The notes below the pieces were generated by a model that made no database searches, was not told the origin of the DNA, and saw nothing but the letters and a program-made list of their open reading frames with translations. Shown piece after piece: positions 24,701 to 51,432 of a DNA stretch of 64,000 nt (the stretch's first letter is position 1; each line of letters begins with the position of its first letter). Where the stretch lies: positions 106,862 through 170,861 of IMG/VR virus record IMGVR_UViG_3300003690_000003; one strand, 5' to 3'. This stretch comes from a virus. A program made the translations under genes and the position numbers.

Positions 24701-27700
24701 GAAGGCCACGTCTACACCGCCCGCGGGGATCGTAGTGGGATCCTGGTGGTCACCGCCGTACCAGCCGCTGCGATCCATATAAGTACCGGGGCCTCGTCCG
24801 GCGATGTCGTCTTGAAGGTTTGCTTGCGCGGAATCGGGTTGGCGTACTTCATTCCACCAAAACCTAATTGCATCATAATTGTTTTTTCGTATCGGTCCTC
24901 GAACAGCATGATAGTATTCTCGCCCCGCTACCTTCTCGGCGTGGCCTGGCTTGCCGCAGTTAGCAGTCTCACAACCTAGCCCAAGATTAATCCCTTTTTT
25001 ATCACCGGCATGCCGGTGATCGTATGAACCATTGCCGGCCCTGCCTTTCCAGTAATACCAGGGACTCTCATGCTGTATGGTTCTTACTATATACATCACT
25101 GATACACTGTCCAGGCTAGTATCAGGTTTTGTATCACTAGCCCGAACGGTATTAACAAATGTATTAAATCGATCGATACTAACGACCATATCATTCCAGT
25201 TTGACGCATAAGTATATTCGCCCTCTTGGGTCGATGTATCAAACGGAATAGGTAAAAGTTTATCCATCCATTCTTTAATCTGGCCGGCGCGACGCAGGTT
25301 CTCCTCTGCCATCATCGCGGCCTTAACGGCGTTATCTGCTTCTACCGAACCTGCTATGGGGGTTCCGGCAAGCATATTGTTTAGATTATCCATATTTACA
25401 GCTAGTTTAATATAGTTTTCGCGAACAAACACACCATGGTTTGCGGCCAAAAGAGCCTCATCCTCCGATATTGTATCAGACATAACCCCGGGGTATCGCA
25501 AAGATGTTCCATAATTATAGTCCACTTCCCTGGCGGCCGTTATTGTCTCAACTCCTTGCTGGTCCGTTGTTGTTATCTCTGGCTCTTCAAGTTCCCATGT
25601 AAATATATCTCCCCAGCCGGAGGCCCTTTTTAACTGTGGTTTAATCGGAGCCGAAGGATTGACTGTAAGTGGGAAATCAAGAACATCGGAAGTTGGCAAT
25701 CCATACAATAAGAAAGAGGTGTCAGCGCCGGCGGTCTGCTTCCCAAACGCGGTATTAATAATATCTGCCATTTTGACTAATCTTTTGCGAATCACATATT
25801 CTAGAGCATATTTGCCATATGTGTCATTTAGCATAACCGTTGTTAGATCGACCGCTTCTTCGCGAGGTCCCGCAGCATCGATCGCTGCCATCACATCGAG
25901 CGGGATTATTTCAGGAGCTCCATCTGGATCTGTCGGATTTGGAAGATGTCTTCCGGGGTCCAGTTCGTGGGCTGATGACTGGGCGCGAATTCTGAGCTTA
26001 TCAACATGCATTATTGATGCTTTAGTCAATGCTATTAACATTTGTCTTTCTAGCCTGTCCTCTCTTCCCTCGTTGGCGTCTAAGGGCATTGTCGATGTAG
26101 CGCCAATGCTACCATATATTGCTTCAATAATGTTCGTTCTAACAAACTCACCACTAAGCCAATCGGCATCTAGCCCGTATGCATCAAGCAAAAAGATATT
26201 TTTAAGAAGTTGTTCTAATAAAAGAACCTGCACATAGGCATTCAGGACTGCATAAATTAGCGCATCCTCGACCGGTCCTATCACACAAGTTTTATCTGTA
26301 CACGAGTTTTCTTCAAACTCGTTTAAAGCTTCTTGAATAATACCATCAATATCTAACAAATCATTACCAAATGTAGCACCATTGGGACATGGTATGGGTA
26401 CTAATGATAGTTTTTTAAGCTCTCCTACACTAAAAAGCTTTGAATTTCGCACATTATATGCTAGTGAATTAAACAAAGATATATATGCTGAAAAATATAA
26501 GGACTTCTTACAGGCCTGCCTTAATAACGTTGGATCCTGCTCGAAGCCGGTACTCCCGGGACCAATAGGAGGATTGTAAAGCTCAAAAGTGGAAATATAA
26601 TGATCAAATACGGATGATTCAAAAGCAGATGCTAAAAATTCTCGACCGTCACAAGAGAATTGAAAGTTATCACCTCCGTCTGCGCACTGGTAAGTGGCGG
26701 AGGCGCCCTCCGCGGGTACCGGGTATCTTTCAATCCCCGTCTCAGTTGTATAGGTTAAGGGAAACAGAGAGGCGGCCGACCCTGCCGGTACTTGTCCGGG
26801 GGAAAAATAGATATAAGAGCTTAACTCCGGATTATTATAATCTATTATAAGAATAGAGAAATACATATTATTGTAATCGGGGAGCGGGTTGAGCGAGACA
26901 CTTGAATTATTACTAAGCCATGGAGAACTAATATTACGATCCAAACCGGCTAAGTTGTCTTTATACCCCGGGGCAACGTTGTATGTGATGGATATACCAG
27001 CACAAGCGGAACCCCGGCCTGAATCAGTAGCTTCGAATAGTCTTGCTATCCCAGCAATTTGAGGATTGCTCATTAATCGTGAAGGGAACAAACTCATTAA
27101 CTGTTCTCCGGGAGGATCTCGATCAGACTCAGTCAGCGCACCTTCGTCGTCGCGCGGGCTCGGAGGAGTGGGAAGAGCGCCGGCTTCTTCCAAAGCATCC
27201 ATAAGCGCCGCATTTTCTGTACTGCATCCGGGTGTAGGTACAAGCAATATATCTCTTAACAAAGAAATATCACGTATAAAGGCAGTTTTTGGTATATCAA
27301 AAAGACCAGTAAACATGGTAGTAATAGAGTGATTGAGTGCCGGCATGCTTGCAAAGGCCGGTACTACTCCAGCTCCACAGCCCAAATCAGGAATAGCCCC
27401 GTCCATCAAACCGGCCCCATTGTCATAAGCGTCCAAAAGAGCATCAAAAATACTGGGGTCTACGGCCTCCGTTAACATCTCTTCTATGGTACAGGGATCC
27501 AGGTCATCGACGTTAATGGGCGGCTCGGCATATACTGATTCACAATAATCATTTGAAACACAGCCCCCCACGCATATAAAAAAATCTACTATTCGTGCAT
27601 CATTAAAAAGTATCGCACTCAAAGAGGTATTGCCCCCTTCTAAAAAGTCGGGTTCTGTGCTCAATATATTCTTAATAACTTCCACTACTCTTTCAGAGGC

Positions 27701-33842: not shown

Positions 33843-34205
33843 TTATATTTCCAATCCCAAAAGTCCCTTATTTCTATCAAGGTTTATAGCTACAGCATAG
33901 TCTTCGTTCCCGTCGGGCTTTCGATCGTTTACTAAATATCTTTTACCGCCCCCAACTCCCAGAATAAGCTGATCATAAATAATACCTAGTTGTGACAGCT
34001 GTCTTTCTGTTTGGGACCGGGACCCTTCTCTGCGCCCAGATACTAATATAATATTATAACCTTTTTTGTCCCATTCTAATAATGTTTCAACTGTTCCAGA
34101 TAAAAGCTTTGGATTAAAATCTGGTTTGGTTGTTTCCGTGGCAGCGCCATGTTCTATCAATGTTCCGTCGATATCACAAAATATTGTTTTTGCCCTATTA
34201 TCCAT
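33843..34205 (-). CDS. capless HAD-family phosphatase
   Basis: IFCDIDGTL motif I, LVSGR motif II, LVNDRK. Confidence 0.8.
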   Translation of the reverse strand: MDNRAKTIFCDIDGTLIEHGAATETTKPDFNPKLLSGTVETLLEWDKKGYNIILVSGRREGSRSQTERQLSQLGIIYDQLILGVGGGKRYLVNDRKPDGNEDYAVAINLDRNKGLLGLEI

Positions 34206-35169
34206 AAAATAAGCTTCCTAGCTTGTTCTTAATATTGTATTTTATTTCAGTATCAATATCTTCAAAATTAGATTTAATTCTTTCTAGGAAATCTAGTTGA
34301 GATAATATATAATGACCGCATATATTTATAAGCTCTTCTTTATTTACTGTGGGATCATAATAATCGTCTACCCACTTTTTCCAACGTCTAGAGTCATAGC
34401 ATATCTGCCAAAATACGTCAAGAAGTTCAGGCTTTTCATTTTTAATTTTATGTAGATATGTTTTAGTTTCTATCTGTCCGAATTCTGGGGCTATATTAAT
34501 TGAATCTAGGCCAAGTGAAAACTTTTCGTGAATCAGCGCTGGTGGCAAATAGTCACCATTGTGTTCCTTCGCAAACATTCCATGCTGATGTACTATTTTA
34601 AGCATTCCTTTAAGTCGCTCCTTGCCATATACTCCTGTGTTTTCATTTCCTTGCAACGATGTACCTGATTGTATCACACAATATTTAATTTTTTCATATT
34701 CTGCTGCTTTAAGCTTCCGCTCTAAATCTTTTAATAGCCTGCCGACCTCGGAGGTACTAAAATGTCTGATTGCTTCCTCTGTTCCCACTTCAAAAAATAT
34801 CTTCGAGTTTCGTTGATAACAATATTTAATCATTTCAACTGTCCACTGCAAACCATCTTCATAAACGGGATATTTTTTCCAAGGATCAATGTGAATCATA
34901 TCTAAATATTTGCAATCTACCTCTAAAGAATCATAACCGTCATCATCACAAAGCCCCTGGCCGGGGCCGGCATGATCGCGAGTGATGAACTGCCGCGGCA
35001 TATATCTGCGAAAGGTTTTGGTCGACCACCCATTTACATAGCCTCCTTGGGTGGCAACTTGACGACGAGAAGGGATAAATCCTATACGATGGCCTGTCTC
35101 GTTGCAAAACTCTACTACAGAGTCTACAACATTTTTTGACATTGGGCCAATAAAATATTTAATCGACAT
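34198..35169 (-). CDS. GatZ/KbaZ-like TIM-barrel protein (putative ketose-phosphate epimerase)
   Basis: RDHAGP, IHIDP, EVGTEE, VIQSGT, KEHNGDY and NIAPEFG parallel the GatZ motifs DHxGP, IHLD, IGTE, VVQPG, EAHSTDY, KVGP. Confidence 0.65.
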   Translation of the reverse strand: MSIKYFIGPMSKNVVDSVVEFCNETGHRIGFIPSRRQVATQGGYVNGWSTKTFRRYMPRQFITRDHAGPGQGLCDDDGYDSLEVDCKYLDMIHIDPWKKYPVYEDGLQWTVEMIKYCYQRNSKIFFEVGTEEAIRHFSTSEVGRLLKDLERKLKAAEYEKIKYCVIQSGTSLQGNENTGVYGKERLKGMLKIVHQHGMFAKEHNGDYLPPALIHEKFSLGLDSINIAPEFGQIETKTYLHKIKNEKPELLDVFWQICYDSRRWKKWVDDYYDPTVNKEELINICGHYILSQLDFLERIKSNFEDIDTEIKYNIKNKLGSLFYG

Positions 35170-36721
35170 TTTCCAGTGTTCTTTTCAAACTCAGCTTCCC
35201 AAAATTAAATAAAAATTTGTTAAAAGGATATTTATGCAATGGCGCCATGTTTATCCATATAATCGCCGTCAGCACCTCTACCTTTTGAAAATCATATCCA
35301 TTATCAATAATAAATTTTTTCAATATCTTTTTACACTCTAAAAGTTTAGAGTTACACAAAATATAACAGTTATCGACTGAACTATTAAACATCTTCTTGT
35401 TTACAATTTCATGATTAATACTCAGATTGTGATTCAGCTTAGCCAAATCATAATATATGTCCCCAATCGATAAATGACCTCCGAAATCTTGACGCCAATC
35501 GAGTAAACAGAAGCCATCCTCCGTTTCAAGAATATTGTCTAATATAAAATCTCCATGGAACTGTACAGGAACCCCCGCGCATAACCATTTCAAATCGATT
35601 TTATTGAAAAGCTCTTTAATAGGAGGGACCGCTTCTCCATTAATCAGCACCGACACGTCGGAGTTTTTCTCTAAAAATGTATTAATACGTGAAAATGTTT
35701 TATCGACGTAAAACCGACGACATATCTCATCAAAGGCATCACACTCTTTTTTTAACCACAGCCGCTCTTTTGACCACTCTAGAAGGCGCCAAAACTTCTC
35801 GCGGGTAACTGACTTAGAAAACAAACTCCCTGGGACCAACTCATACTTATAAAAGTTATTTCCTGTGGCCACGACGCGAGGTACCAAGCCAGCAAGACGT
35901 TTGGCACGCTGAATACGATTTTGATTAATCTCGGCATTGGCAAAAAACTTTATAACGTGCTTCTCAAAAAAGTAAATCGATTCCTCCTTTTTTTCCAGCA
36001 CGTCGGTCGTGGTCGTAAAGTGTTGTCGAGCCCTTTCTAGTTCTCCTACGTTGCCAATATCAATCCACCCATGTGCCTCAACAAACTTAACTGGAGCCGC
36101 CGAAGTCTCCAACATACGGTTGATTACATTTCCTTCAAACAAAGAAGTGCTATCCCCTTCCGCGTGATATAATTTTTCTAGCTCCTCCCAAAACAAAATA
36201 TAATCTTTAATCCCGCATAGTCCTACATATGCAAAATCATAATGAAGCTCTCCTTTCTCTTTAATTTTTACTACTGCGCCCCTGTCAACCAACAGGGTGC
36301 TATATTGCGAAGCGTCATTTTTTTGCTCTCCAACACAAAAATTCTCACCACTTTGAACACACTCCAATAAAAATGTACTATCCTTAAAGAAAGTATCACA
36401 TGCATTAAATATGAAAGGGCACTGAAGTTCTTCCTTGGCTTGTAAAATAGAATAAGCAAGGCTCGACCCGGGACCATTATAGTTATCCACCCACACAAAA
36501 GCACAGTTTAACTGCGGATATGCCATTTCTACAAACTCTTTTACATATAAACCATAGTGTCCTAGCGTAATCACGAACTCTGTGCCAGCTGGATATCCTT
36601 CTATAATATATGAAATAGCTGGTTTGTCCCCTATGCGAACAAGTGCCTTGTTGGTAAAATCGGTAAGATCACCAAGGCGGCTCCCAACTCCGCTTGTTGT
36701 TATTAATACTTTATATTGCAC
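35159..36721 (-). CDS. sugar nucleotidyltransferase fused to an APH/choline-kinase-like phosphotransferase
   Basis: N-terminal SGVGSRL...NKALVRI and WIDIGN (NTP transferase); C-terminal FHGDFILDNI...LLDWR...DIYYDLAKL (APH-like kinase); GTG start. Confidence 0.85.
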   Translation of the reverse strand: MQYKVLITTSGVGSRLGDLTDFTNKALVRIGDKPAISYIIEGYPAGTEFVITLGHYGLYVKEFVEMAYPQLNCAFVWVDNYNGPGSSLAYSILQAKEELQCPFIFNACDTFFKDSTFLLECVQSGENFCVGEQKNDASQYSTLLVDRGAVVKIKEKGELHYDFAYVGLCGIKDYILFWEELEKLYHAEGDSTSLFEGNVINRMLETSAAPVKFVEAHGWIDIGNVGELERARQHFTTTTDVLEKKEESIYFFEKHVIKFFANAEINQNRIQRAKRLAGLVPRVVATGNNFYKYELVPGSLFSKSVTREKFWRLLEWSKERLWLKKECDAFDEICRRFYVDKTFSRINTFLEKNSDVSVLINGEAVPPIKELFNKIDLKWLCAGVPVQFHGDFILDNILETEDGFCLLDWRQDFGGHLSIGDIYYDLAKLNHNLSINHEIVNKKMFNSSVDNCYILCNSKLLECKKILKKFIIDNGYDFQKVEVLTAIIWINMAPLHKYPFNKFLFNFGKLSLKRTLENVD

Positions 36722-37075
36722 TTAGTCGGACACTCTCTTATAGTCATCTTCGAAGCGAACTATATCATCTTCACCAAAATATTCTCCCCGCTGCACTTCA
36801 ATAAAAACCAAGTTGTCTTGGCCCGTATTGCGTATACGATGCTTTGCTTCTACAGGGACGCGTACAACATCTCCGGCCTTAACCTCGGACGTAACATCAT
36901 CCAATGTTAGGCGCCCCCCTCCTTGAACTATAATCCATGTTTCATCGCGCTTGTGATGTAGCTGGTAACTGGGGGCATGCCCTGGATATACCACTATTTC
37001 CTTCACCTTACAGTAGCTTGTATCCAAAAGGTTTTCGAATGTTCCCCATGGGCGCGCTTCCTTATAGTGTGTCAT
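36722..37075 (-). CDS. cupin, type II phosphomannose-isomerase C-terminal-like
   Basis: RPWG...SYQLHHKRDETW...KHRIRN...FIEVQRGEYFGEDDIVRFEDDY. Confidence 0.9.
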   Translation of the reverse strand: MTHYKEARPWGTFENLLDTSYCKVKEIVVYPGHAPSYQLHHKRDETWIIVQGGGRLTLDDVTSEVKAGDVVRVPVEAKHRIRNTGQDNLVFIEVQRGEYFGEDDIVRFEDDYKRVSD

Positions 37076-38244
37076 GGGACGAATTTAATCTTGGGATTTA
37101 TATTAGTAAGGATGTCATGTTTTATTTCCTCGTTATAAACGCCAGCCCTTAAGATTACTATAGCACTATCTTCGTTGCTCAACGCGGCCGGAGACGCTAC
37201 CTGAAGATGTGTGCCATAAAGTCGTTTACCGTGTTTTTTAACATCGTTATCTAAGATGCTAACTATCTTGTCTGTTTGCAGTCCGTGGGCTATCAACCAC
37301 TGCGAAAACACATGCCCTCCAAATAGATATATCGGCGCTGTGGCCTCCTTGACTAAAATATTAAGCTCTTGGGATAATTGCGCGTCGGCTTTTATGTACT
37401 TCATCCACAACTCTTTATGATTCTCATAAAGCTTTGGGGGTAGTTCGGATGGTCGTCTGCTGTTGCTAGTTTTTTTAATACCATAAAAAATACTATGATC
37501 ATCTCTAAAATATTCTTTTTCAACAACTTCAAACCCATAGGTTTCTATAAAATAATCGACGTATACCTCATCTAAGAAATATGTGTGCTCAAAATTTAAA
37601 CAATTAGAGTAGTTTTTTTCTAACATCGCTCTCATATTGGGGATAGAAAAAAACGACAGGTCCCCTATCTTCATAAATGTCGCTTTGTCGCGCATAAAAC
37701 GATGAGGAGAATATACATGCTCGAATACGTGTGAATGTACTATCGTATCATATCTTTCGGTCGCTTTAAAATTCTCATTAAACCACCCTTTAATAAGGTG
37801 CAGAGGCTCCTTAATATTCTCACTTGGATTGGGCTCCACAATCGTCCACTTCAACTCCGGACGATTGTTTAGAATTAGGCGCCCTAAATAACCATGTAAC
37901 CCTCCTATTTCCAATATGCTATTGGTCTTATCAGGCTGTCGTAAAATAAATCTAGAAAAAGCTTCGTGATGTCGGCGCCAAAGCTCTCCTACCGTCCCCG
38001 AGCCATGGCCTTTTTTATATACTATTTCCAAAGGTAAAACAGGATCAAGCTGAATCATTCCAGACTTGCGACTAATCCACCAACTCATCGACGAAACTAA
38101 ATCATCTTCTGGTGACGTGTTATCACACCCCATAAAAACAGGAAAATTTGAAAAGGTGCACAGATGCTCCATATCTGTAGAGTTCGTAATTAAATCAGAG
38201 CCTCTTGGGATACCTGTTATAACATTTGTCTTATCTTTTTTCAT
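37072..38244 (-). CDS. class I SAM-dependent methyltransferase (NDP-sugar methyltransferase-like)
   Basis: ILEIGGLHG, HSHVFEHV, FEHTYF and a C-terminal Rossmann domain (ILDNDVKKHGKRLYGT) as in sugar C-methyltransferases. Confidence 0.75.
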   Translation of the reverse strand: MKKDKTNVITGIPRGSDLITNSTDMEHLCTFSNFPVFMGCDNTSPEDDLVSSMSWWISRKSGMIQLDPVLPLEIVYKKGHGSGTVGELWRRHHEAFSRFILRQPDKTNSILEIGGLHGYLGRLILNNRPELKWTIVEPNPSENIKEPLHLIKGWFNENFKATERYDTIVHSHVFEHVYSPHRFMRDKATFMKIGDLSFFSIPNMRAMLEKNYSNCLNFEHTYFLDEVYVDYFIETYGFEVVEKEYFRDDHSIFYGIKKTSNSRRPSELPPKLYENHKELWMKYIKADAQLSQELNILVKEATAPIYLFGGHVFSQWLIAHGLQTDKIVSILDNDVKKHGKRLYGTHLQVASPAALSNEDSAIVILRAGVYNEEIKHDILTNINPKIKFVP

Positions 38245-40003
38245 TTTTTTCCCAACTCAAAAACTTATCAAAGACATATTCAGCCGGCGGATTAGCTCCG
38301 TGTTCAGATAAAAAAAGCACCGAAGTTTCAAATGGATTCCAACTATCTTTATATCTAGTCAGATTGACCGGCATTGAGAACGCACTTGTGTTCCAATCGG
38401 CCCAGACTATCTGTGGACACCCACATAGGCTTGCTAAATGCATCGGTCCAGAAGAAGTTCCAAAAATGCATGCTGCGCTAGCCAAAGTGTTTAAAAGTTC
38501 CTTCGATTCACACTCTCGCATGTCCGCGGAACCTTCGACAAACATGGATTCTTCTTTGGTTCCAATACATACTACATTATAGCCCACCGAATGAAGTTTT
38601 TTAATTAAGTCTTCCCACTTGTCACGGCTCCAATTGTCATTGGGGCGCAAGCTTCTATTCCGAGCATGAATAACAACAGCTTTTTCCTCTTTTGTTTTCT
38701 CTCCTAGCTTTTTATACTCAGGGGGAAGGAAGTGTTGTGCTATCTGGATTTTTTCAGTAATCGGAGTATAGGGAGGGTTTCCAACTCTTCGCGGGCCCAC
38801 AACCGATACGGCCGACTCTTGCGGATCGATTTTTAGAGATTCCAGAGTCTCTTTAACTATGGCCCCTAGCGGCGGGATGCCCGTACGATGAAAGGTGTCT
38901 CGGGGCCCTGCGTTTTCAGGATCAAAAGGAACAAATATATCACAAAAATCATCATATAAAAAGCGCGAATGTTTTGAAGACACACATACGGTTTTATCAT
39001 AAAACGCAGAAAGGCTTCTAATATATCCCTGCCACGCAAACAATTCCCACCCAAACTCTCCGACCCACGGACCAGCAAGTAAAATGGTTTCTTTTTCTTT
39101 CTTGTGTCTCGGCGAAAAGTCAAATCTTTCTAATAAGCGCAACGTTTCGGCAGCCCAGTTCTTTCTGGTATATTGCTGGACTGTCACTCTACCTTGTTTT
39201 CCTATCCTCTCTCTTTCTTTGGGATTCTCTAGATAAAATGCAATCTTTTTATTTAAATCATCATAGTCTTTAAAAATAACGAGGTCTTCGCCGTCCGTAA
39301 AAAAATCTTCCCTGTCGTTCCAATCATCTGATATCAAAAATCCGGCGGCGGCTAGAACCTTAAAAACCCGATCTGACTGACCCCCTGTCGTACAAAAATT
39401 AAGATTAATCTTGGACTGCGATACCGCCATGGAGTGTTGCTCAGCAAAAACATTGTTTATTACGCTAATAGAGTATTTGATTTGTTCCATCTTGGATTTT
39501 CGATCGCCGTACAGCGTCCCTATAAAACTAACATCATAAATCTTTTCTAGATTTCGCGGCTTCTCAAGAGCGCTATCAAAGCCATCTGTTACCAAAAACG
39601 AGTTTTTATTAAGCTCTAATGCTTTATCTAACACATTCTTCTTATCACATGTAAAAAAGTCTGCCACTCTTGTCTTGTCGTAGAATTCTTCGTATGAATA
39701 TGTAGCAAGAGGATCAGCAAACCAATAGCATAAAGGAGCAAGTTTTTTACACTCTTTAAAAACTCGAATGCTTATACCGTTACATTTAGAAAAAATTATA
39801 AAATCGGGAGCCCAGCTTTTACAAAAGCGAATAATTTCATCATCCCTTTTAGAGGAAATAAAAGGATTCCCTTCTAAAGTATGCCCGCGAGTTCGATAGT
39901 TATAAGCAACCACTGTGTGTCCCGCGTTTTGTAGCTCCCTCAGCTTTGCGTTATCAGCACTTTGATGTATATTATCAAAAACGGCGCTATAAAATATTTT
40001 CAT
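38231..40003 (-). CDS. two-domain glycosyltransferase: CgeB/GT1-like plus GT9 (heptosyltransferase-like)
   Basis: DVSFIG, SKINLN, SDRVFKVLAAAGFLISD (CgeB-type); GEFGWE and FGTSSGPMHLASLCGCP (GT9 DSGPMHLA motif). Confidence 0.8.
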   Translation of the reverse strand: MKIFYSAVFDNIHQSADNAKLRELQNAGHTVVAYNYRTRGHTLEGNPFISSKRDDEIIRFCKSWAPDFIIFSKCNGISIRVFKECKKLAPLCYWFADPLATYSYEEFYDKTRVADFFTCDKKNVLDKALELNKNSFLVTDGFDSALEKPRNLEKIYDVSFIGTLYGDRKSKMEQIKYSISVINNVFAEQHSMAVSQSKINLNFCTTGGQSDRVFKVLAAAGFLISDDWNDREDFFTDGEDLVIFKDYDDLNKKIAFYLENPKERERIGKQGRVTVQQYTRKNWAAETLRLLERFDFSPRHKKEKETILLAGPWVGEFGWELFAWQGYIRSLSAFYDKTVCVSSKHSRFLYDDFCDIFVPFDPENAGPRDTFHRTGIPPLGAIVKETLESLKIDPQESAVSVVGPRRVGNPPYTPITEKIQIAQHFLPPEYKKLGEKTKEEKAVVIHARNRSLRPNDNWSRDKWEDLIKKLHSVGYNVVCIGTKEESMFVEGSADMRECESKELLNTLASAACIFGTSSGPMHLASLCGCPQIVWADWNTSAFSMPVNLTRYKDSWNPFETSVLFLSEHGANPPAEYVFDKFLSWEKNEKR

Positions 40004-40009
40004 ACCACT

Positions 40010-40339
40010 CTACTTTTTAAAAAACTCACTATCAAGAATTCCTTTATCATCAACATATATATCGGCGGCCGGCTTACCTAGAAAGAGAGCATGATATTTA
40101 AGACCCCACTCGTTTAGTTGATTTTCTGTAAAAGAATACATTTGTTTGTATGCCTCAATTTGATTGTTACTGCTTCTTCCCATCCCCCGCGCAGTCAAAA
40201 AAAATATTGTATGGCCATTCTGATATAGATCATTTACTTTCTGGATACGCTTCCGATCGGGAATTGAATTAATGTAATCGCTCCCGTTTGTCTGACAGAT
40301 TGTTCCATCGATATCAAAAACATAAGTTATTTTATCCAC
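40010..40339 (-). CDS. capless HAD phosphatase (EcbF/BcbF-like capsule-biosynthesis type)
   Basis: YVFDIDGTIC, LTARGM, LGKPAADIYVDDKG. Confidence 0.85.
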   Translation of the reverse strand: MDKITYVFDIDGTICQTNGSDYINSIPDRKRIQKVNDLYQNGHTIFFLTARGMGRSSNNQIEAYKQMYSFTENQLNEWGLKYHALFLGKPAADIYVDDKGILDSEFFKK

Positions 40340-40995
40340 TTATTAAAATCTCTTATAAACCCATCTACAGATTCATCAGTTTTTAAATGTTTAGTCGCCT
40401 TTTTAATTACTGAAGCAGAGGCCGTCACAATATGACAGCCGGCATCCCAACAGTCTTCTAAATCATATGCATTACGAATACTTCCAGCTATTATCTCACA
40501 CTGCAGGTTGTTGATATCAATAAATTTTCTCGTTCTTTGCAACGCTTGAATCGCGTTTCCTTGGTTGTCCAAAACCCTATTATAAAATAGAGAAACATAT
40601 CTGGCGCCGGCGGAGGCGGCTAGTTGCAACTGCGTGGCAGTAAAACAGCATGTACAGTTCACTCTAACTCCAAGCTGGAAAAGTTGATTTACCGCTCTCA
40701 TTTCCTCAAACCCGACCGGTACCTTTATATTCACATTATCATAATCAATTCTTTCAATAATCTTTAGCCCCTGCTTAATCATCTCATCAGGTTCTGTTGC
40801 GAAAACCTCAACAGAAACTGGTATTTTCTGTTGGTACTTTTTACAAAGCTCGCAAATCTGTTGGATGTGCGAATAGAAATCTGCCTTTGGTTCTTTTGAA
40901 AGTAAAGACGGATTGGTTGTTATGCCTTGCACTAACCCTTTTGACAATACTTCTTCTATCTCTTGTAGGTTCGCTGTATCGACAAATAATTTCAT
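40327..40995 (-). CDS. tal: transaldolase (TalC/Fsa type)
   Basis: LFVDTAN, GITTNPSL, catalytic NIKVP, IIAGSIR. Confidence 0.9.
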   Translation of the reverse strand: MKLFVDTANLQEIEEVLSKGLVQGITTNPSLLSKEPKADFYSHIQQICELCKKYQQKIPVSVEVFATEPDEMIKQGLKIIERIDYDNVNIKVPVGFEEMRAVNQLFQLGVRVNCTCCFTATQLQLAASAGARYVSLFYNRVLDNQGNAIQALQRTRKFIDINNLQCEIIAGSIRNAYDLEDCWDAGCHIVTASASVIKKATKHLKTDESVDGFIRDFNKWIK

Positions 40996-41411
40996 TTTTT
41001 ATCTTCCTCTAAATGTTTATACGTTTTCCCATCTTCAACTATGTGGGAGTCCGCATTATCATCCAAAGTTGAAAACTCTATAATAACCGTATCCTCCAAA
41101 GCGATTCGCATATGCATAAAACCAGGCGGTATGTGAAATACATCTCCTTTATTTAAAATCAAAGAAGTATTTTTTGCTCTTCCGATTCGAGTCCCTACTT
41201 TGAGCTTTCCTGATTCAATATAATAAGATTCTTCCTTCTTTACATGATATTCCAGGCTACTTTGAGTATCCTTTCTCATAAAAATCCTTTTAACTGTATA
41301 TTTATCATTTTCGAAAAGAGTTTTTATACTACCCCAATATTTATCGATACTCTTTACTACACTATTAACCGGAGGCAGCGTGTGGCGACCATATTTAATT
41401 TCATTGCCCAT
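40992..41411 (-). CDS. cupin-domain protein (putative sugar isomerase)
   Basis: KYWG, SSLEYHVKKEESYYIESG, HIPPGFMH, EFST; start placed at the Met overlapping the araD stop region. Confidence 0.75.
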   Translation of the reverse strand: MGNEIKYGRHTLPPVNSVVKSIDKYWGSIKTLFENDKYTVKRIFMRKDTQSSLEYHVKKEESYYIESGKLKVGTRIGRAKNTSLILNKGDVFHIPPGFMHMRIALEDTVIIEFSTLDDNADSHIVEDGKTYKHLEEDKK

Positions 41412-42084
41412 AGTAACTCTTATCCCCATGCTTTCTCAAAAAGTGTTTATTGATGATAAATTTTTCTAGTGTTGACTGCGGATTGAACAACAAGGTTTTG
41501 TATGCCATTTCTGCGACCAACTCTAAAATAAATGAATGTTGCAATGCGTTCTCGATTGTATTTCCCCAAACGAAAGAGCCATGCCCGGATATCAGACATG
41601 CCGCAACATCATTATAACTCAAACCAGACATTTTATAAAATTTTGCAATAGTTTTGCCCGTATATTTCTCATAATTTTCTGTCACTTCATTTTCAGTGGG
41701 GTGACGGATACATGGTATTTCTCCAAAAAAATAGTCCGCATGAGTTGTACCCAAACAGGGTATTGATTTCTGGGCTTGCGCAAAAATCGTAGCATATTTC
41801 GAATGTGTATGCACTATGCTATTGATATCTGAAAAGTTTTTATAAATCTCTAAATGAGTTGGCAAATCAACGGACGGTTTTCTACCGCTTATTAAAGTTT
41901 CATCCATTCTTACACTAGAGATTTCATCAATACTCAATAAATTCAAATCAGCTCCAGAAGGCTTTATATAAACTACGCTAGTATCTCTATCATAATAACT
42001 AACATTTCCCCAAGTTAAACTAACAAGACCCTTGTCGATGATCCATTTGTTGGCCTTTAAAACCTCTTTCTTAATCGATCTCAT
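41401..42084 (-). CDS. araD: L-ribulose-5-phosphate 4-epimerase (class II aldolase family)
   Basis: TWGNVS, IKPSG, KPSVD, HTHSKYAT, GTTHADYF and C-terminal HFLRKHGxxxYYGQ. Confidence 0.9.
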   Translation of the reverse strand: MRSIKKEVLKANKWIIDKGLVSLTWGNVSYYDRDTSVVYIKPSGADLNLLSIDEISSVRMDETLISGRKPSVDLPTHLEIYKNFSDINSIVHTHSKYATIFAQAQKSIPCLGTTHADYFFGEIPCIRHPTENEVTENYEKYTGKTIAKFYKMSGLSYNDVAACLISGHGSFVWGNTIENALQHSFILELVAEMAYKTLLFNPQSTLEKFIINKHFLRKHGDKSYYGQ

Positions 42085-42982
42085 TCAAATCCTCATATAC
42101 TGGTGATACGGTACCTCTTTTTAAGGTGGACGCCGCGGCCCATTTATTACAAAAAGATAAATCTTTATCCTTGTAACTCATACTGAAAGCAGCCAAAAAA
42201 GAGTCGCCGGCGCCACATGTATCCACGGGCGCGACTCGATATCCATCATGACACAACAATACATTGTTATAATACAGAATCGAGCCGGCGGCTCCTAAAG
42301 TGACACATATATTACTATTCAGATTTTTAGATAGTTTCTGCATGTGTTTATATGTAGGTTTAAAAAAAGGGCAGTTTTGTATTGCCTCTTCATGGTTCAT
42401 ACAAATAAAATCTGAGTTAGCAAAGTGGGGGTATTGATTCTTCCCATCAGAAATCTGTGAGCTGGAGATTACTACTGCCTTGTTGGTTTTAAAATATTCT
42501 ATCAGGTCTTGAGTTGTCTTCTTATCATCAAAAAGGCCATTTCTATAATCCGCTAAAACGACGGTGTCAACTTTTTGTTGAGCTACATACTTCTTTATAA
42601 GCTCTAAATCTGCTATGACAAGATTTCTTTTGTCGCCACGATTTATTTGCAAATATTTATAGCTATGGAGTCCTTTTTTAATCCAAACTCTGCTTTTAAC
42701 AAGATTTTCTCCCCTGTGTGCCAGGGGTTTAAGTATGAAGTTATCACTCTTCCAACCATAAAATAAGCCACTGTATTGATCTTCCCCTACGTTTGTAAAA
42801 AATGTAACGCGTGCTCCAAGTGACAACAAATTGTTTACTACATTGGCAGCACCTCCAAAAGATACTTTTTCATCAACAAGCCTGGTTTTTAAAGTAGGAG
42901 TTTCTAAAGATAGACCTATACAATCACAAAAAAGATCATGATCAACGATTGAATCTCCTAAAACTAAAATATTTTTTTTCAA
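42071..42982 (-). CDS. PfkB-family sugar kinase (HldA / RfaE domain I-like)
   Basis: LVLGDSIVD, GGAANV, DYRNG, DTCGAGDSF anion hole. Confidence 0.85.
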   Translation of the reverse strand: MKKNILVLGDSIVDHDLFCDCIGLSLETPTLKTRLVDEKVSFGGAANVVNNLLSLGARVTFFTNVGEDQYSGLFYGWKSDNFILKPLAHRGENLVKSRVWIKKGLHSYKYLQINRGDKRNLVIADLELIKKYVAQQKVDTVVLADYRNGLFDDKKTTQDLIEYFKTNKAVVISSSQISDGKNQYPHFANSDFICMNHEEAIQNCPFFKPTYKHMQKLSKNLNSNICVTLGAAGSILYYNNVLLCHDGYRVAPVDTCGAGDSFLAAFSMSYKDKDLSFCNKWAAASTLKRGTVSPVYEDLNEID

Positions 42983-43848
42983 CTTTCACTCTTCTCCCAG
43001 CCTTTGTTTTGGTATATTTTCTTTATAACGTTGGTGGTAGAATAGTTTTCCAAGAGGGGATATATTTTTATATCAACTTTATCTGGTATCTTATCTCGGC
43101 GCCTTACCTCTTTAGCATTCCACTCCCCTCCCTTCACAATAATAGATGGCTGTAGCTCTTCTATAATGCTTGCGCTTTCCAGTTCATCGTAAACCACCAC
43201 TTCGTCTACTTCTTCAAGCGCCTCTAAAAGCTTTTTTCTATCTTCTTCGTTATTAATGGGTCTATTTTCGCCCTTTAGCTCACGAACACTCCTATCCGAG
43301 TTGATACCAACAACAAGCTTATCTCCGAGAGACTTAGCGAATCTTAACAATCCTAGATGCCCAGCATGCAAAATATCAAATACTCCATTCGTAAAAACAA
43401 TTTGTTTCTTTGTAGATGACAACTTCTCTACTCGTGCGATATGTCTGCCTTCTCCAAAGTTAGTTTGTAGCCAAATATCTGTAATTTCAAAATTTTGTTC
43501 TTCCGTGGTAGTCCAACTTCCCAAACATAGTACATTAGAATCGTTATGTTCACGACTCTTTGGCGCTGTCATAACATTGTGAACTAAGGCTGCCCTCACT
43601 TTATCAAATCTATTTGCGGCGATGCTCATACCAACACCAGTACCACAAATAAGAATACCCCTGTGAATATCATCATTGCTTAAAATCTGACACAATTGAT
43701 TAGCGTAGTCGACGTAGTCCACTTTTTTAGTTTTATCATAAGGTCCTATATCTATAACAATATACCCCTTCTCTTTAAGGTGGGTTCTAATTTTTTCTTT
43801 TAAAGTAATCCCGTTATGATCAGACGCCAAGCCTACAATATTCATCAA
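42979..43848 (-). CDS. RpiB-type sugar-phosphate isomerase fused to an HldC / RfaE domain II nucleotidyltransferase
   Basis: ASDHNG, CGTGVGMSIAANR, REHNDSNVL, GRH (RpiB); FTNGVFDILHAGH, GINSDRSVRELKGENRPIN, YSTT (RfaE II). Confidence 0.9.
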   Translation of the reverse strand: MMNIVGLASDHNGITLKEKIRTHLKEKGYIVIDIGPYDKTKKVDYVDYANQLCQILSNDDIHRGILICGTGVGMSIAANRFDKVRAALVHNVMTAPKSREHNDSNVLCLGSWTTTEEQNFEITDIWLQTNFGEGRHIARVEKLSSTKKQIVFTNGVFDILHAGHLGLLRFAKSLGDKLVVGINSDRSVRELKGENRPINNEEDRKKLLEALEEVDEVVVYDELESASIIEELQPSIIVKGGEWNAKEVRRRDKIPDKVDIKIYPLLENYSTTNVIKKIYQNKGWEKSES

Positions 43849-44714
43849 AGCTCCAATAAATCTGAAAAAGTTTTTAGCGCTGCATCTCTTTTTTGTCTTA
43901 TTTTAACGATCAGCTCTTTACCGGATAAATCAAACCAGTCTTCCGAGGTAGCGCCGATCATAGCCTTTCGAGTTACTACTTTACATTCGAGCATTTTTGC
44001 TTCTACCACAACTCGTGACAGTGTTTCCAATACCTGCGGCATAAAAATAAAATATTTGTATTGAGCCATAGCTTCTAATAACTCTTCCTCTGAAAGCGGA
44101 CCTATTAAATCGTACTCTATACTATTTGTTTCGCAATACTTAACGGCCTCCACTGTTCCTTTAATAGGATTAGGCGAGTTAATAATACAATACTTATTTT
44201 TCTTGGGAGATCCCACCAAGGATTCTATAAAATCTAGCTTCTCGTCTGACCACAAAGAACAGCCAATATTGCTTACGTTATTTATATCAAGAGTTTTTTC
44301 CATTATTTTTTTGCATATGCCGCTTAATACTACGACACTGTATGCTTTTTCATAAAAGCTTTTATTAATGATTTGCTCTCCTGGGATGATAAAATTAGGA
44401 AACACAGAAGGATCACGAGTTCTTATATATTTGTGATCATGTTCATAAATAATATATTTTTTGGGGCCACCATGGCCGGAAGATCCTTCTAAAAGTCGTT
44501 TGCTCTGTTCGGAAAGCTCAATAAAGTTGGATATAATATATGTTTCTTCCGCGGAAGAAGAAACAATCGTGTCGGGTGTAGTCTTCTTCGCATGAAGCAT
44601 TGTTACATCTACTTCGGTATTTCGTAGAAAGTTGATAAGTACAGCATCATTGTTTTCGGCGCCGCCATTGATTTGGTTATTAAAAAAGTCAGCCACAAAA
44701 GTTACCTTTTTCAT
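43845..44714 (-). CDS. putative glycosyltransferase (GT-B)
   Basis: GGAE, YEHD, KGT, ETLSRVVVEAKMLEC (Ex7E motif). Confidence 0.7.
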   Translation of the reverse strand: MKKVTFVADFFNNQINGGAENNDAVLINFLRNTEVDVTMLHAKKTTPDTIVSSSAEETYIISNFIELSEQSKRLLEGSSGHGGPKKYIIYEHDHKYIRTRDPSVFPNFIIPGEQIINKSFYEKAYSVVVLSGICKKIMEKTLDINNVSNIGCSLWSDEKLDFIESLVGSPKKNKYCIINSPNPIKGTVEAVKYCETNSIEYDLIGPLSEEELLEAMAQYKYFIFMPQVLETLSRVVVEAKMLECKVVTRKAMIGATSEDWFDLSGKELIVKIRQKRDAALKTFSDLLEL

Positions 44715-45958
44715 AACACTTCTATATTACTTAAGCTTTCAAGCCACTCCACTTCTTCTTTAGAATAGATTGTAGAAATAAAATCTTTATACAACTGTTC
44801 AGCTTGAAAATTCTTTATAATATGTTTTTTCAACTTATTTGCGGCGGCCTGAAATCTCGTATGGTTTTTGTAAACTTCGCGAAGTTGTTTCTTGTAATCG
44901 CCCTCAACGGGATATGCCCACATCGAATCTTTCTCTACGACGCCTTCCCAGTGAGCTTCAGGAGGCACAGTGCCAAGAGTATAAGCTACTTTTGCTACCA
45001 TAGGTCTCAATTTACCATTTTTATTTGGAGCATAAAGAAAATCTGTATGGCCACTCCAAAGTGAAGTTACAATGGGTAATCCATTATATGCTGCTTCGAA
45101 TAACGGTAACCCAAAGCCTTCTCCGTGACTTATAGAAACCAAAGCTTTTATCTTATCATGGGTATAAAGCCATGTCATTTCTTCTTCCGAGAGAGTTCCG
45201 TGTAGCAAATATATTTTACATTTTCGCTCGCCGTATGGTCTCATTAATGCTTTCAAACGCATCTCGGTTATCTGCCTATCGATTATACAATCTTTGGCTA
45301 TGTTAGTTTTTAAAACGAAACCAACTTCTTCATCTTTAAACTCGTCTACAAACCACTTAAGAGTGTTATCTATATTTTTTCGCGGGCCCCATTGTGCCAC
45401 TGTTAAAAAGTTAAAATCGTATTTCAAATCTATCCCCTCTAGAGAACTAGGTTCAAAATGTCGCACTGGATAGTTAATAACTTCAATCGGAGTCTCACAT
45501 CTATAGTTTTCTACTATTTCGCCAGTCTCTTTGTTTTTTGCGTTGGCTGTGGTGGTCTCATATACTTGTTTGGAATGATTCGAGACTACAATAATCTTAT
45601 CCATATCATTTCCTTTAGTGAGCCATATAGGTGCCACCTTGGTAGTTTCAATACCAGCAGTATACCCAATGTTTATGGGTGCTATTTTTTCCCATTCATT
45701 AGGAATTGTTACCTGAAGAGATATATCTAAAAGTCCCTTTGCTTGAACAAGTTTCATCGTTTTGAAAAGCAAGTGATCAAGCCACTGACGTTCTTCGCCT
45801 AGGCCCGTAATATACCCGGTGTGTCCCCATGGAATATTAATGAGATATATATCAAATACATCTTCGCGACTTTTTAGTGCTCGAAGAGCAAATCTGGTTT
45901 GTTCTCCATAACCCGAACGAGAGAATGCGGGCCCTTTAACTAATATTTTCTTTTTCAT
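44711..45958 (-). CDS. GT4-family glycosyltransferase
   Basis: SGYG, RKNID, GEGFGLPLFEA. Confidence 0.85.
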   Translation of the reverse strand: MKKKILVKGPAFSRSGYGEQTRFALRALKSREDVFDIYLINIPWGHTGYITGLGEERQWLDHLLFKTMKLVQAKGLLDISLQVTIPNEWEKIAPINIGYTAGIETTKVAPIWLTKGNDMDKIIVVSNHSKQVYETTTANAKNKETGEIVENYRCETPIEVINYPVRHFEPSSLEGIDLKYDFNFLTVAQWGPRKNIDNTLKWFVDEFKDEEVGFVLKTNIAKDCIIDRQITEMRLKALMRPYGERKCKIYLLHGTLSEEEMTWLYTHDKIKALVSISHGEGFGLPLFEAAYNGLPIVTSLWSGHTDFLYAPNKNGKLRPMVAKVAYTLGTVPPEAHWEGVVEKDSMWAYPVEGDYKKQLREVYKNHTRFQAAANKLKKHIIKNFQAEQLYKDFISTIYSKEEVEWLESLSNIEVL

Positions 45959-47214
45959 ACTATCTCCAAGAACTCATATGCTATATAACCTTTTCGTGTA
46001 TTCCACGAACCGTTGATCTCGTAAACTTCTTTTAAGGTCTCATCCCATTTTTCTATATAAGTTGCGAAATTATAGTTTTTCGTAACATGGGCTACTCCTA
46101 GGTGACCCATTTCTGCTCGCTGTTCGGCTGTCAAATTGTAAAAGTCTACTAAAGCCTTAACAAAATCATCTTTATTTAATCGGTCTTCAAAAATATATGG
46201 AACGTCTTGAGAGCCAATAACCGCTTTAGAAACAGACTCAAGTCCAATTCCAAACCAGTTCTCTCCGTCGGTTACTTGTTCTTGAAGTCCTCCTGTCATA
46301 TTAACAATAATAGGTGTTTCACATGCTAACGATTCTAATGTAGCCAGCCCAAATCCCTCTGCATCAGCAATATTAATCGTGCAATCTGCCATATTATACA
46401 TCAGGGCCATGCCTTCGGGAGGCAATTTGTCTCTAGAAAGCATTATTTCTCCATTTGTTAGCCCCAACTCATACATAATATGTTCTAAATCTTGCCCATG
46501 GACATCTTTTGGTTCGGTGTGCATAATCAAACACGCGTTATCGTGTCCTACCTTGTCCAAAAACTCCTTAAACCAGAAAATCAATGTTCCACTTTGCTTT
46601 CGGCGCGCATTTCGATTATTCCAAAAAAATACAAATTTCTTCGGATTATTTAAGTGTGTTTGTCGAAATGTTTCTACAACCTCCGCGTCTAGTTTTTTAA
46701 AATATGTCGGATCAACAGCATGAGGAAGATATAAAGATTTAACTGTCGGTGAAACCGTTTTAACTATATCATATGTCACTTTAGATATACAAGCGACACA
46801 ATCGTTTGAATCATAAAACTTTTTGTTAAAACGAGGATAAGGATAATTATCCCATACGTGATAATATACCATCGGAACAAGAGAACGAATCTCGTTTTCT
46901 ATCTCCCACAACCAACCGTAAAAACGAGGATCCGTCATAAACCATAAAATATCCGGTTTTTGCTGAATTAATATAGATCTAACCTGGTCCTGTGTACCAT
47001 ATCCATCAACAGGAAAAATAAGCCAATCATCACCCCACTGCTCGGTTTTTTGAGCATTATGATCATCATGCCGCATCGCTCCAGCAAAAGATATAAACTG
47101 ATAACGACCTGTCTTAAGCAGTCCTTCAATAATATACTTTGTTTGAGTTCCCACTCCGGAAGGAGAAAGAGGATGATCACTTATAGTGAAAATCTTGATT
47201 TTTTTATCTGTCAT
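45955..47214 (-). CDS. GT4-family glycosyltransferase
   Basis: PSGVG, NRNARRKQ, AEGFGLATLESLACETP. Confidence 0.85.
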   Translation of the reverse strand: MTDKKIKIFTISDHPLSPSGVGTQTKYIIEGLLKTGRYQFISFAGAMRHDDHNAQKTEQWGDDWLIFPVDGYGTQDQVRSILIQQKPDILWFMTDPRFYGWLWEIENEIRSLVPMVYYHVWDNYPYPRFNKKFYDSNDCVACISKVTYDIVKTVSPTVKSLYLPHAVDPTYFKKLDAEVVETFRQTHLNNPKKFVFFWNNRNARRKQSGTLIFWFKEFLDKVGHDNACLIMHTEPKDVHGQDLEHIMYELGLTNGEIMLSRDKLPPEGMALMYNMADCTINIADAEGFGLATLESLACETPIIVNMTGGLQEQVTDGENWFGIGLESVSKAVIGSQDVPYIFEDRLNKDDFVKALVDFYNLTAEQRAEMGHLGVAHVTKNYNFATYIEKWDETLKEVYEINGSWNTRKGYIAYEFLEIV

Positions 47215-50616: not shown

Positions 50617-50942
50617 ACTGCTGCTGCGTGGAATACTGTCTCGTCTGGTCGATAGAGAAGTTCATTTACAACAAATCCGCTCTTTTCGCCTTTGCAGTGT
50701 TTAGGAAACCATCTATTGGTATCCATAATATCTATAAATGTATTTAAAGTATAGTAAATCTCGCCATGCACAGTTTCTAGACGCCATCGATGGGCCCGAT
50801 CGCTTTGTCCTTTAACATCGCTTTCAAAAGATTTTATATCATCCATTCGCATATAAATATGATAGTTTTTATCCTCTCGTACATGTGTAAAGTTTACAAA
50901 ATATGCACCCACTTCGGCGACATTTTCAACATTAATTTTCAT
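50613..50942 (-). CDS. hypothetical protein
   Basis: 109 aa, overlaps neighbours. Confidence 0.6.
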   Translation of the reverse strand: MKINVENVAEVGAYFVNFTHVREDKNYHIYMRMDDIKSFESDVKGQSDRAHRWRLETVHGEIYYTLNTFIDIMDTNRWFPKHCKGEKSGFVVNELLYRPDETVFHAAAV

Positions 50943-51432
50943 TATTTTTTCCTCTCAAAAGAATTCTTTTATCTGGCTTAGGTATATCCAAATCAGTAGT
51001 ATCTAAATCGGCAATGAGATTGGAATCATTAACAAGGTCAGAACTACTTTGTATTTTTTCGCCTCCAAGGGCCCACGCTAACTTAATACCAAGTTTTCCA
51101 CAAAGGGCCATTTCAGGAGTATTTTTATTGGTCCTGTCGCCCCCATTGCCAAAAATATCCGGCCTTACCCTGTAAAGAGCCTCACAAACAGTTCCATCTT
51201 TATCATCAACCAGAACTACTCTTGTAACCCCTTGAATCGCTCCTAGTATTTCTGCTCTTTCCTCCCAAGGCATAAATATATATCCTTTTTTCTTCATTAG
51301 CCAATCATCGCTGTTAGCTGCAATAATGACATTTCCCAGTTCTGCTGCAGCCAATATCATGCGCACGTGGCCGATATGAATAGGATCAAAACCACCTGAA
51401 AGCATTATCACTGGAGTTAAGGGTTCGTCCAT
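50932..51432 (-). CDS. cytidylyltransferase-like protein (HIGH family, TagD/RfaE II-like)
   Basis: SGGFDPIHIGH, NSDDWLMKKKG, NGGDR, KIQSSS. Confidence 0.85.
   Translation of the reverse strand: MDEPLTPVIMLSGGFDPIHIGHVRMILAAAELGNVIIAANSDDWLMKKKGYIFMPWEERAEILGAIQGVTRVVLVDDKDGTVCEALYRVRPDIFGNGGDRTNKNTPEMALCGKLGIKLAWALGGEKIQSSSDLVNDSNLIADLDTTDLDIPKPDKRILLRGKNNEN

Follow-up and report, generated by a model that had tools for sequence, protein, structure and literature searches.

Can a virus build a nucleotide-activated sugar of the heptose type without the isomerase GmhA and the phosphatase GmhB, the two enzymes used to recognize heptose biosynthesis? The question is raised by a run of genes at 38231-43848 in a 64,000-nucleotide stretch of viral DNA (the window), which is the final 64 kb of the 170,861-bp IMG/VR virus record IMGVR_UViG_3300003690_000003, 94% complete by CheckV. 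A first-pass annotation had read these genes as a pathway like that for adenosine diphosphate (ADP)-heptose, in which GmhA is replaced by a fusion of RpiB with a nucleotidyltransferase (NT). Our analysis suggests that six of the genes form a horizontally mobile cassette that probably makes an ADP-activated C7 or C8 aldose from pentose-phosphate intermediates without GmhA or GmhB, and that a small cupin, rather than RpiB, is the likelier stand-in for GmhA.

Nearly every long open reading frame (ORF) in the window lies on the minus strand, and at 38231-43848 seven minus-strand genes follow one another, each start overlapping or abutting the preceding stop. The gene list of the first-pass annotation proved accurate, as ORFs, Pfam and NCBIfam place all seven where it had put them:

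42979..43848, minus strand: fusion of RpiB (about residues 5-145) with an HldC-like NT (about 150-280), 289 residues (Pfam, NCBIfam)
42071..42982, minus strand: sugar kinase of the PfkB family, 303 residues (Pfam, NCBIfam)
41401..42084, minus strand: AraD-type 4-epimerase of the class II aldolase fold, 227 residues (NCBIfam NF006047)
40992..41429, minus strand: metal-binding cupin of the class II phosphomannose isomerase (PMI) type, 145 residues (weak Pfam matches, hhalign)
40327..40995, minus strand: short transaldolase of the TalC type, 222 residues (TAL_FSA)
40010..40339, minus strand: small capless HAD phosphatase with a DxD motif, 109 residues (TIGR01689, EcbF/BcbF type)
38231..40003, minus strand: two-domain glycosyltransferase, 590 residues (Glyco_trans_1_2 and a GT9-like C-terminal half)

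A conserved cassette in viruses and cells

An alignment-based scan of IMG/VR with the fusion protein gave 57 viral loci, and the window proteins were compared with the six-frame ORFs of these loci. A single-protein locus search with the same query found three partial matches only, and the module had no nucleotide-level match in the phage collection. The PfkB kinase, which directly follows the fusion gene, is present in 54 of the 57 loci, as is the cupin; the transaldolase is found in 52, the HAD in 50 and AraD in 48. All six genes stand in the order fusion, kinase, AraD, cupin, transaldolase, HAD in 38 of the 57, at amino-acid identities of 30-83% and with differing flanks, and most of the other loci either are truncated or show the HAD or AraD gene in a different place. 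The six-gene arrangement is a conserved unit, far beyond chance. Five viral loci and those of the Acidobacteriaceae lack AraD, which leaves the fusion, kinase, cupin, transaldolase and HAD as the minimal conserved set. The 590-residue transferase, which had been counted as part of the module, falls outside this core, being present in 8 of the 57 loci only.

The fusion at the head of the cassette is widespread. The 120 best database clusters, 59-86% identical to it, all contain both domains, and a survey of the neighbourhoods of such fusions, as the first-pass annotation had suggested, revealed the cassette around the fusion in viral and cellular loci. The viral carriers are not one phage lineage, and at least two kinds of myovirus have the cassette. 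For the baseplate protein of the window, the closest matches (31%) come from Microcystis phage Mel-JY01 and Flavobacterium phage immuto; a 205-kb cyanomyovirus-like contig (L036) has the full cassette between flanks with 78% nucleotide identity to Synechococcus phage S-SRM01. Cellular assemblies with the cassette are assigned to Acidobacteriaceae, Parcubacteria, Saccharibacteria, Woesearchaeota and Pacearchaeota. In Acidobacteriaceae the contigs reach 964 kb and the cassette lies inside a locus with Wza, Wzz, a MurJ-type flippase and a polymerase; contigs labelled as metagenome-assembled genomes (MAGs) of Pelagibacter or Prochlorococcus are probably phage contigs or infected cells. Because the synteny is fixed across phages and cells we regard the genes as acting as one unit, which agrees with the earlier view that the enzymes form a single module. 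Ocean viromes are rich in the cassette, and organisms of minimal metabolism carry it too.

The isomerase step

A profile search of the whole 170,861-bp record detected neither SIS nor SIS_2 domains, in agreement with the earlier remark that no SIS-domain GmhA is visible, and none was found in three other large viral records. The cassette-bearing Parcubacteria and Pacearchaeota genomes gave no match to GmhA; the Acidobacteriaceae with the cassette have a GmhA-like gene elsewhere in the genome. Dependence of the viral cassette on a host GmhA, an outcome that the first-pass annotation had allowed for, is unlikely.

The annotation had assigned the missing step to the RpiB half of the fusion. This half (LacAB_rpiB, residues 5-143, 166 bits in Pfam) scores 150.8 bits against TIGR01120, above the equivalog cut-off of 138.65, and has RpiB 3he8 as its nearest solved relative (118 bits). 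In an alignment of 39 fusion proteins D9, H10, C67, T69, H100, N101, R134, H135 and R138 are invariant, as are H160, G162 and H163 further on, so that the RpiB half keeps the Cys/Thr/His/Asp catalytic residues of the E. coli type together with the Arg phosphate clamp. It looks like a canonical ribose-5-phosphate isomerase, unmodified in appearance. With the equivalog score and the catalytic residues as they are, the proposal that GmhA has been replaced by the RpiB-NT fusion is not supported in that form.

The cupin is the best-conserved protein of the cassette, at up to 83% identity, and also the least annotated. Its Pfam matches, to Cupin_1, MannoseP_isomer and Lyx_isomer, are weak, and a sequence search against solved structures gave nothing below an E-value of 0.02. 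A profile of its family matches the window's own PMI-type cupin (36722-37075) with an hhalign probability of 97% (E 1e-10, 102 columns). Both cupins share the motifs PWG, S-x-x-x-H-x-x-K/R-x-E and GD...P...H, and the metal-ligand positions are conserved. In the window protein these are E60, H62, E67 and H106, position 60 being His in the family consensus; K47 is invariant and K65 nearly so. The AF2 model has a pLDDT of 93.7.

A smaller module, with a kinase, an NT, the same cupin and the same HAD, is found in cultured cyanomyoviruses (P-TIM68, S-SSM7, S-CAM1 and others), and the P-TIM68 and S-SSM7 genomes, when searched, contained neither SIS nor RpiB. Relatives of the cupin are found fused to a complete HldE (PfkB plus NT), to HAD domains and to transaldolase. 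PMI converts a ketose 6-phosphate to the aldose 6-phosphate of C2 'manno' configuration, which is the same stereochemical outcome as that of GmhA on sedoheptulose 7-phosphate. The cyanophage modules, the fusions, the PMI stereochemistry and the unmodified RpiB half together lead us to favour the cupin, so that, as judged from the protein sequences, this PMI-like protein is a likelier substitute for GmhA as ketose-phosphate to aldose-phosphate isomerase than is RpiB.

The converse assignment would make the RpiB domain the committed isomerase, acting on a heptulose or octulose phosphate, and the cupin a later epimerase, for example on the nucleoside diphosphate (NDP)-sugar in the manner of RmlC or CapF. 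We consider this improbable. Every member has RpiB and the activating NT in one polypeptide, RpiB-family enzymes also isomerize allose 6-phosphate and erythrulose 4-phosphate, and the CapF epimerase cupin domain is among the top fold matches of the cupin; yet the RpiB half passes the threshold for a true RpiB with its E. coli-type catalytic and phosphate-binding residues in place, and by textbook stereochemistry the products of transaldolase are 3S whereas the substrates of RpiB are ribulose-like at C3. In addition, cyanophage modules that have neither RpiB nor SIS always retain the cupin, HldE-cupin fusions exist, and the match between the cupin profile and a PMI-type isomerase cupin extends over the whole profile. 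Of the two proteins the cupin is thus the better candidate for the committed step, on the evidence of the cyanophage modules, the fusions and the hhalign match.

The proposed route and its product

With the cupin as the isomerase, the cassette can be read as follows. The transaldolase would form the committed ketose phosphate, either sedoheptulose 7-phosphate or, as LmbR does, octulose 8-phosphate, with ribose 5-phosphate supplied by RpiB. AraD, where present, may invert C4 of this ketose, and the PMI-like metal cupin would then convert the ketose phosphate to the aldose phosphate, taking over the task of GmhA. The HldA-like PfkB kinase is predicted to phosphorylate O-1 of the sugar omega-phosphate, the small EcbF/AfhF-type HAD to remove the terminal phosphate in place of GmhB, and the HldC-like domain of the fusion to make the NDP-sugar, probably in its ADP form. 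A GT9-type transferase, in the window presumably the C-terminal half of the 590-residue protein, would use this donor. The ADP-heptose-like logic recognized by the first-pass annotation stands: a putative isomerase, 1-kinase, terminal phosphatase and NT are found in one unit.

The kinase (PfkB, 78.7 bits in Pfam) has rfaE_dom_I as its best NCBIfam match at 91 bits, far below the cut-off of 345, with ribokinase at 56 bits. The NT half of the fusion (CTP_transf_like, residues 152-275, 73 bits in Pfam) reaches 154.3 bits against rfaE_dom_II, below the cut-off of 181.5; it carries conserved HAGH and YSTT motifs, of the HxGH and STT type, and among solved structures it is closest to 5x9q (102 bits), an entry with the cytidylyltransferase fold. 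A heptose-type reading is supported because the two HldE domains are the nearest relatives of the kinase and the NT and because GT9 genes adjoin the cassette.

The HAD matches TIGR01689 (EcbF/BcbF) at 44 bits and phrog_1238 at 96 bits. Against HAD-SF-IIIA, the class of GmhB, it scores 20.5 bits, below the cut-off of 44.6, and it belongs to a different subfamily from GmhB. Among solved structures it matches 9iqw (58 bits) and 1xpj (40 bits), the latter being the structural match reported for the phage arabinofuranose (Araf)-1,5-bisphosphate phosphatases, which remove the 5-phosphate (PMC13326640). We propose that the cassette HAD acts as a terminal-phosphate phosphatase, a functional analogue of GmhB.

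The transaldolase (TAL_FSA, 161.6 bits) has 3r8r from B. subtilis and 1vpx from T. maritima as its nearest solved relatives. In this group a Schiff-base Lys accompanied by Glu and Phe marks transaldolases, and Gln with Tyr marks fructose-6-phosphate aldolases (FSA). Residues Glu63, Lys91 and Phe137 of the cassette enzyme align with the transaldolases 3r8r and 1vpx and do not follow the FSA Gln/Tyr pattern. In a phylogenetic tree the cassette transaldolases of phages, Acidobacteria, candidate phyla radiation (CPR) bacteria and DPANN archaea form one clade (support 98/91), which excludes the cyanophage talC and the other acidobacterial paralogues. Acidobacteria hold the cassette enzyme beside a housekeeping TalB and other paralogues.

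These relationships bear on the alternative that there is no single pathway, RpiB, transaldolase and AraD being pentose-phosphate auxiliary genes for nucleotide supply that happen to lie beside an ordinary ADP-D-glycero-D-manno-heptose module. Cyanophages do carry talC as an unlinked auxiliary gene; the only transaldolase of the cyanomyovirus-like 205-kb genome (G008, the L036 record) is that of the cassette; and a Pacearchaeota genome has no RpiB or transaldolase besides those of the cassette, which could be housekeeping enzymes there. The argument for a dedicated paralogue in phages is weakened by the single transaldolase of G008 and partly restored by the tree, where this enzyme falls outside the conventional cyanophage talC clade. 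Separate auxiliary genes are nonetheless a very doubtful explanation. At least 120 clusters have RpiB and NT joined by translational fusion, and the transaldolase stands between cupin and HAD in the same fixed order in phages and in cellular exopolysaccharide loci alike, quite apart from its distinctness from talC and its coexistence with TalB in Acidobacteria.

If the genes do act together, the three pentose-phosphate enzymes can be understood in two ways. Transaldolase, RpiB and AraD may push carbon towards sedoheptulose 7-phosphate, in which case the product would be ordinary ADP-D-glycero-D-manno-heptose. By analogy with the octose of lincomycin, RpiB may instead provide ribose 5-phosphate, which the transaldolase would extend by a C3 unit to octulose 8-phosphate, with AraD as an optional C4 epimerase. 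The octulose variant is favoured by the composition of the full cassette, which is exactly the cyanophage mini-module plus a transaldolase and a ribose-5-phosphate-forming enzyme, and also because the cassette transaldolases form a clade of their own and Acidobacteria keep one alongside TalB. It is weakened because G008 has the cassette transaldolase only and because the RpiB and transaldolase of the Pacearchaeota are single copies.

As a rough ranking, a heptose is the likeliest product, although we hold this tentatively, an octose or other long-chain variant is somewhat less likely, a pentose is unlikely, and what is left falls to something else. The more specific proposal, that the cassette makes a sugar other than glycero-manno-heptose with the cupin as isomerase, either an ADP-octose from ribose 5-phosphate and a C3 unit or a C4-epimeric heptose or octose made by AraD, is possible on the enzyme content but more doubtful than the general route. 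If true, it would constitute an undescribed nucleotide-sugar route common to marine phages, CPR bacteria, DPANN archaea and Acidobacteria and serving surface or virion glycans. The presence of transaldolase, RpiB and AraD within the cassette suggests either a self-feeding design or a new C7 or C8 sugar, and the interest of the locus rises sharply if the product is a new sugar.

AraD does not sit easily in these schemes. It scores 269.6 bits against NF006047, above the cut-off of 257, and 246 bits against the equivalog TIGR00760, below 389, and aligns end to end with E. coli AraD 1jdi (208 bits, about half identical). In 47 distinct cassette AraDs the Zn ligands (H95, H97, H171), Asp76, Asp120 and Tyr229 are invariant. 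The phosphate pocket (N28, K42, S44, G45, S74) is kept, and the position of E. coli S75, which becomes V, T or I, is the sole systematic change. Such an intact site of the pentulose type fits neither the supply of sedoheptulose 7-phosphate nor the octulose variant well.

A third and weaker option is a pentofuranose nucleotide. In an Afh-like scheme RpiB and AraD would give D- or L-ribulose 5-phosphate, the cupin arabinose 5-phosphate (D or L) and the kinase a 1,5-bisphosphate, followed by 5-dephosphorylation by the HAD and activation by the NT, with the transaldolase feeding the pool. Besides the resemblance of RpiB and AraD to ordinary pentose-5-phosphate enzymes, the HAD belongs to the same 1xpj-like small-HAD family as the phage Araf-1,5-bisphosphate phosphatase, a PMI-like cupin with its C2 'arabino/manno' outcome would be a plausible analogue of KdsD, and the upstream GT4 genes are like those for DNA arabinosylation (PMC13326640). 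Nevertheless we judge this scheme very improbable, as the kinase and NT are of the HldA and HldC kind and not of the APH/NTP_transferase type of AfhE, which sits separately at 35159-36721; GT9, the heptosyltransferase family, accompanies the cassette in cells; the record encodes ThyX only and no ThyA-type 5-hydroxycytosine synthase; AraD is dispensable in several lineages; and the transaldolase belongs to a cassette-specific clade.

Several observations weigh against the ADP-heptose-like pathway that we prefer. The single transaldolase of G008 could be merely that phage's pentose-phosphate auxiliary gene. The complete active site of AraD argues for an ordinary pentulose-5-phosphate substrate, and it is hard to see where a heptose or octose route would use one. 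The RpiB half is canonical too, and every cell has plenty of its product, ribose 5-phosphate. The kinase, NT, HAD and transaldolase score below the NCBIfam equivalog cut-offs, so that their specificities are not fixed by family. A Foldseek search with the cupin model returned generic cupins only (CapF, cysteine dioxygenase-like proteins, lyxose isomerase, PMI). There is no clear HldD among the neighbouring SDR genes. Finally, the GT9 match of the window transferase (PF01075, residues 414-532) is marginal, at 24 bits against a cut-off of 22, and this protein is not conserved with the cassette.

Known systems, neighbouring genes and a possible acceptor

The closest known system is ADP-heptose biosynthesis (GmhA/HldA/GmhB/HldC), with which the cassette shares the series of isomerase, anomeric kinase, terminal phosphatase and NT, the similarity of its kinase and NT to the two HldE domains, and the GT9 gene beside it in cells. 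It differs in having a PMI-like cupin and no SIS-type GmhA, a 109-residue capless HAD of the EcbF/AfhF type instead of GmhB, and an NT fused to RpiB and not to the kinase; moreover, a transaldolase is integral to it, AraD is usually present, and no clear HldD is found. We conclude that the cassette is a variant of a known pathway type which is not previously described in the literature that we searched.

Cyanomyoviruses offer the nearest viral parallel. Their module (T4-like gene clusters 304-308 in S-SSM7; also in P-TIM68 and S-CAM1) has the cupin as phrog_7851, the HAD as phrog_1238 and the NT as phrog_7878, with an adjoining carbohydrate kinase and no SIS domain. Unlike the cassette, it has neither RpiB nor AraD, and the transaldolase of these phages is unlinked and of another clade. 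A literature search found automatic names only for this module and no characterization. In RefSeq the cyanophage HAD is called 'phosphoheptose isomerase' (P-TIM68, locus L062, 7748-8086; S-SSM7, locus L063, 9055-9390) and 'cysteine dioxygenase' is the name given to the cupin; each is apparently an annotation error that has been propagated.

In lincomycin biosynthesis a transaldolase, isomerase, kinase, phosphatase and NT make an octose activated by guanosine diphosphate (GDP), LmbR using ribose 5-phosphate as acceptor, and the published table of Lmb proteins lists different gene products for isomerase, kinase and guanylyltransferase (PMC4351081). The cassette resembles this route in that a transaldolase is added to a heptose-type series of isomerase, kinase, phosphatase and NT; a transaldolase and an RpiB that would form ribose 5-phosphate are both present. 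The Lmb isomerase, kinase and guanylyltransferase presumably belong to enzyme families other than cupin, PfkB and CTP_transf_like NT.

An isomerase, kinase, small HAD and NT also make the Araf nucleotide of uridine diphosphate (UDP) in phages (PMC13326640). This UDP-D-arabinofuranose pathway (AfhE, AfhF), which leads to arabinosyl-5-hydroxycytosine DNA, shares with the cassette the bisphosphate logic and the 1xpj-like small HAD family. It differs in its SIS arabinose-5-phosphate isomerase, its fusion of an APH kinase with an NTP_transferase, and its ThyA-like hydroxylase for the DNA target; neither that hydroxylase nor the SIS isomerase is in our record.

Papers on pelagimyophages and cyanophages mention 'rfaE' and lipopolysaccharide-like genes in host-recognition regions in general terms only (PMC7029224). 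A commentary on a cross-kingdom survey of heptose enzymes distinguishes NT-only, kinase-NT and isomerase-kinase-NT forms and describes the phosphatase as absent from viruses (PMC11461863). Our literature search found no description of an RpiB-NT fusion, of a cupin as the isomerase or of the six-gene cassette. If the proposed pathway is correct, GmhA and GmhB, on which the recognition of heptose biosynthesis relies, can be replaced by an unrelated PMI-like cupin and a tiny HAD, and pathways of this kind in viruses and archaea would escape any survey that requires all four canonical enzyme families together.

The first-pass annotation had the product transferred by GT9, and this part of its proposal is supported by gene adjacency in cells, less so in the window. 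A clear GT9 gene directly follows the cassette in an acidobacterial locus (Acidobacteriaceae, L075, 90 bits) and in a parcubacterial one (L077, 85 bits), and phmmer places GT9-like genes beside the cassette in most of 22 cellular loci and in some viral ones. The window transferase, with its marginal match, is not a core gene; its stronger domain is Glyco_trans_1_2 (residues 160-287, 81.8 bits in Pfam). A relative of its C-terminal half in another locus (L014) also matches the GT9 of L075.

The glycan island to which the cassette belongs sits between the baseplate and giant structural genes on one side and a PhoH/nuclease block on the other, and is accompanied by GT4 genes. The genes immediately upstream are:

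43845..47214, minus strand: 289-residue protein and two GT4 glycosyltransferases (Pfam, synteny, structure match)

In the phage lineage to which the window belongs, these upstream genes accompany the cassette; the GT4 pair, a PD-(D/E)XK gene and the 289-residue protein are found in 13-16 of the 57 viral loci. The 289-residue protein (43845-44714) has no Pfam match; in 13 related loci it separates the GT4 pair from the cassette. Its Atlas model (pTM 0.91) superposes with a TM score of 0.94 on part of viral GT2 proteins of 530-550 residues, and its viral family is otherwise fused to GT2 or GT1 enzymes. From the match of the models, it appears to be a stand-alone copy of a glycosyltransferase-fused domain.

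The neighbouring SDR genes were considered as HldD and rejected, since they are Gmd, Fcl and GalE-like proteins belonging to separate GDP-fucose sets with GT10 or GT11. In many carriers (L025, L004 and others) bona fide Gmd and Fcl, for GDP-fucose synthesis, adjoin the cassette together with GT10, GT11 or GT6, FkbM methyltransferases and 2-oxoglutarate oxygenases, which makes the cassette one part of larger glycan islands for several sugars. A search of the record for a ThyA-like gene (Thymidylat_synt) gave no match, only ThyX being present, which makes DNA hypermodification or glycosylation of a known kind an unlikely target. Virion proteins and the host envelope are both possible acceptors; baseplate and fibre genes are neighbours of the island.

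A second sugar-activation set lies in the window at 33843-37075. It comprises a fusion of NTP_transferase and APH kinase (35159-36721), the class II PMI-type cupin (36722-37075) used in the profile comparison above, and a small HAD (33843-34205) that is 24% identical to the cassette HAD. The set is built like the AfhE/AfhF enzymes that make UDP-arabinofuranose in phages, except that a cupin takes the place of the SIS isomerase; the record has no ThyA-like gene.

Some further features of the carriers were noted. In two Acidobacteriaceae loci (L078, L083) the cassette genes are split into adjacent-frame hits, which suggests frameshifts from assembly errors or pseudogenization in these MAGs. Two giant ORFs of the window, encoding 4098 residues (5578-17874) and 2526 residues (21734-29314), lie beside a gp25-like baseplate gene (21243-21638); the 2526-residue protein had no tblastn match in the phage collection. 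The window also encodes a second, stand-alone CTP_transf_like NT of 166 residues (50932-51432), which is 29% identical to the NT half of the fusion and is kept near a PIN-PhoH gene in 11 related loci.

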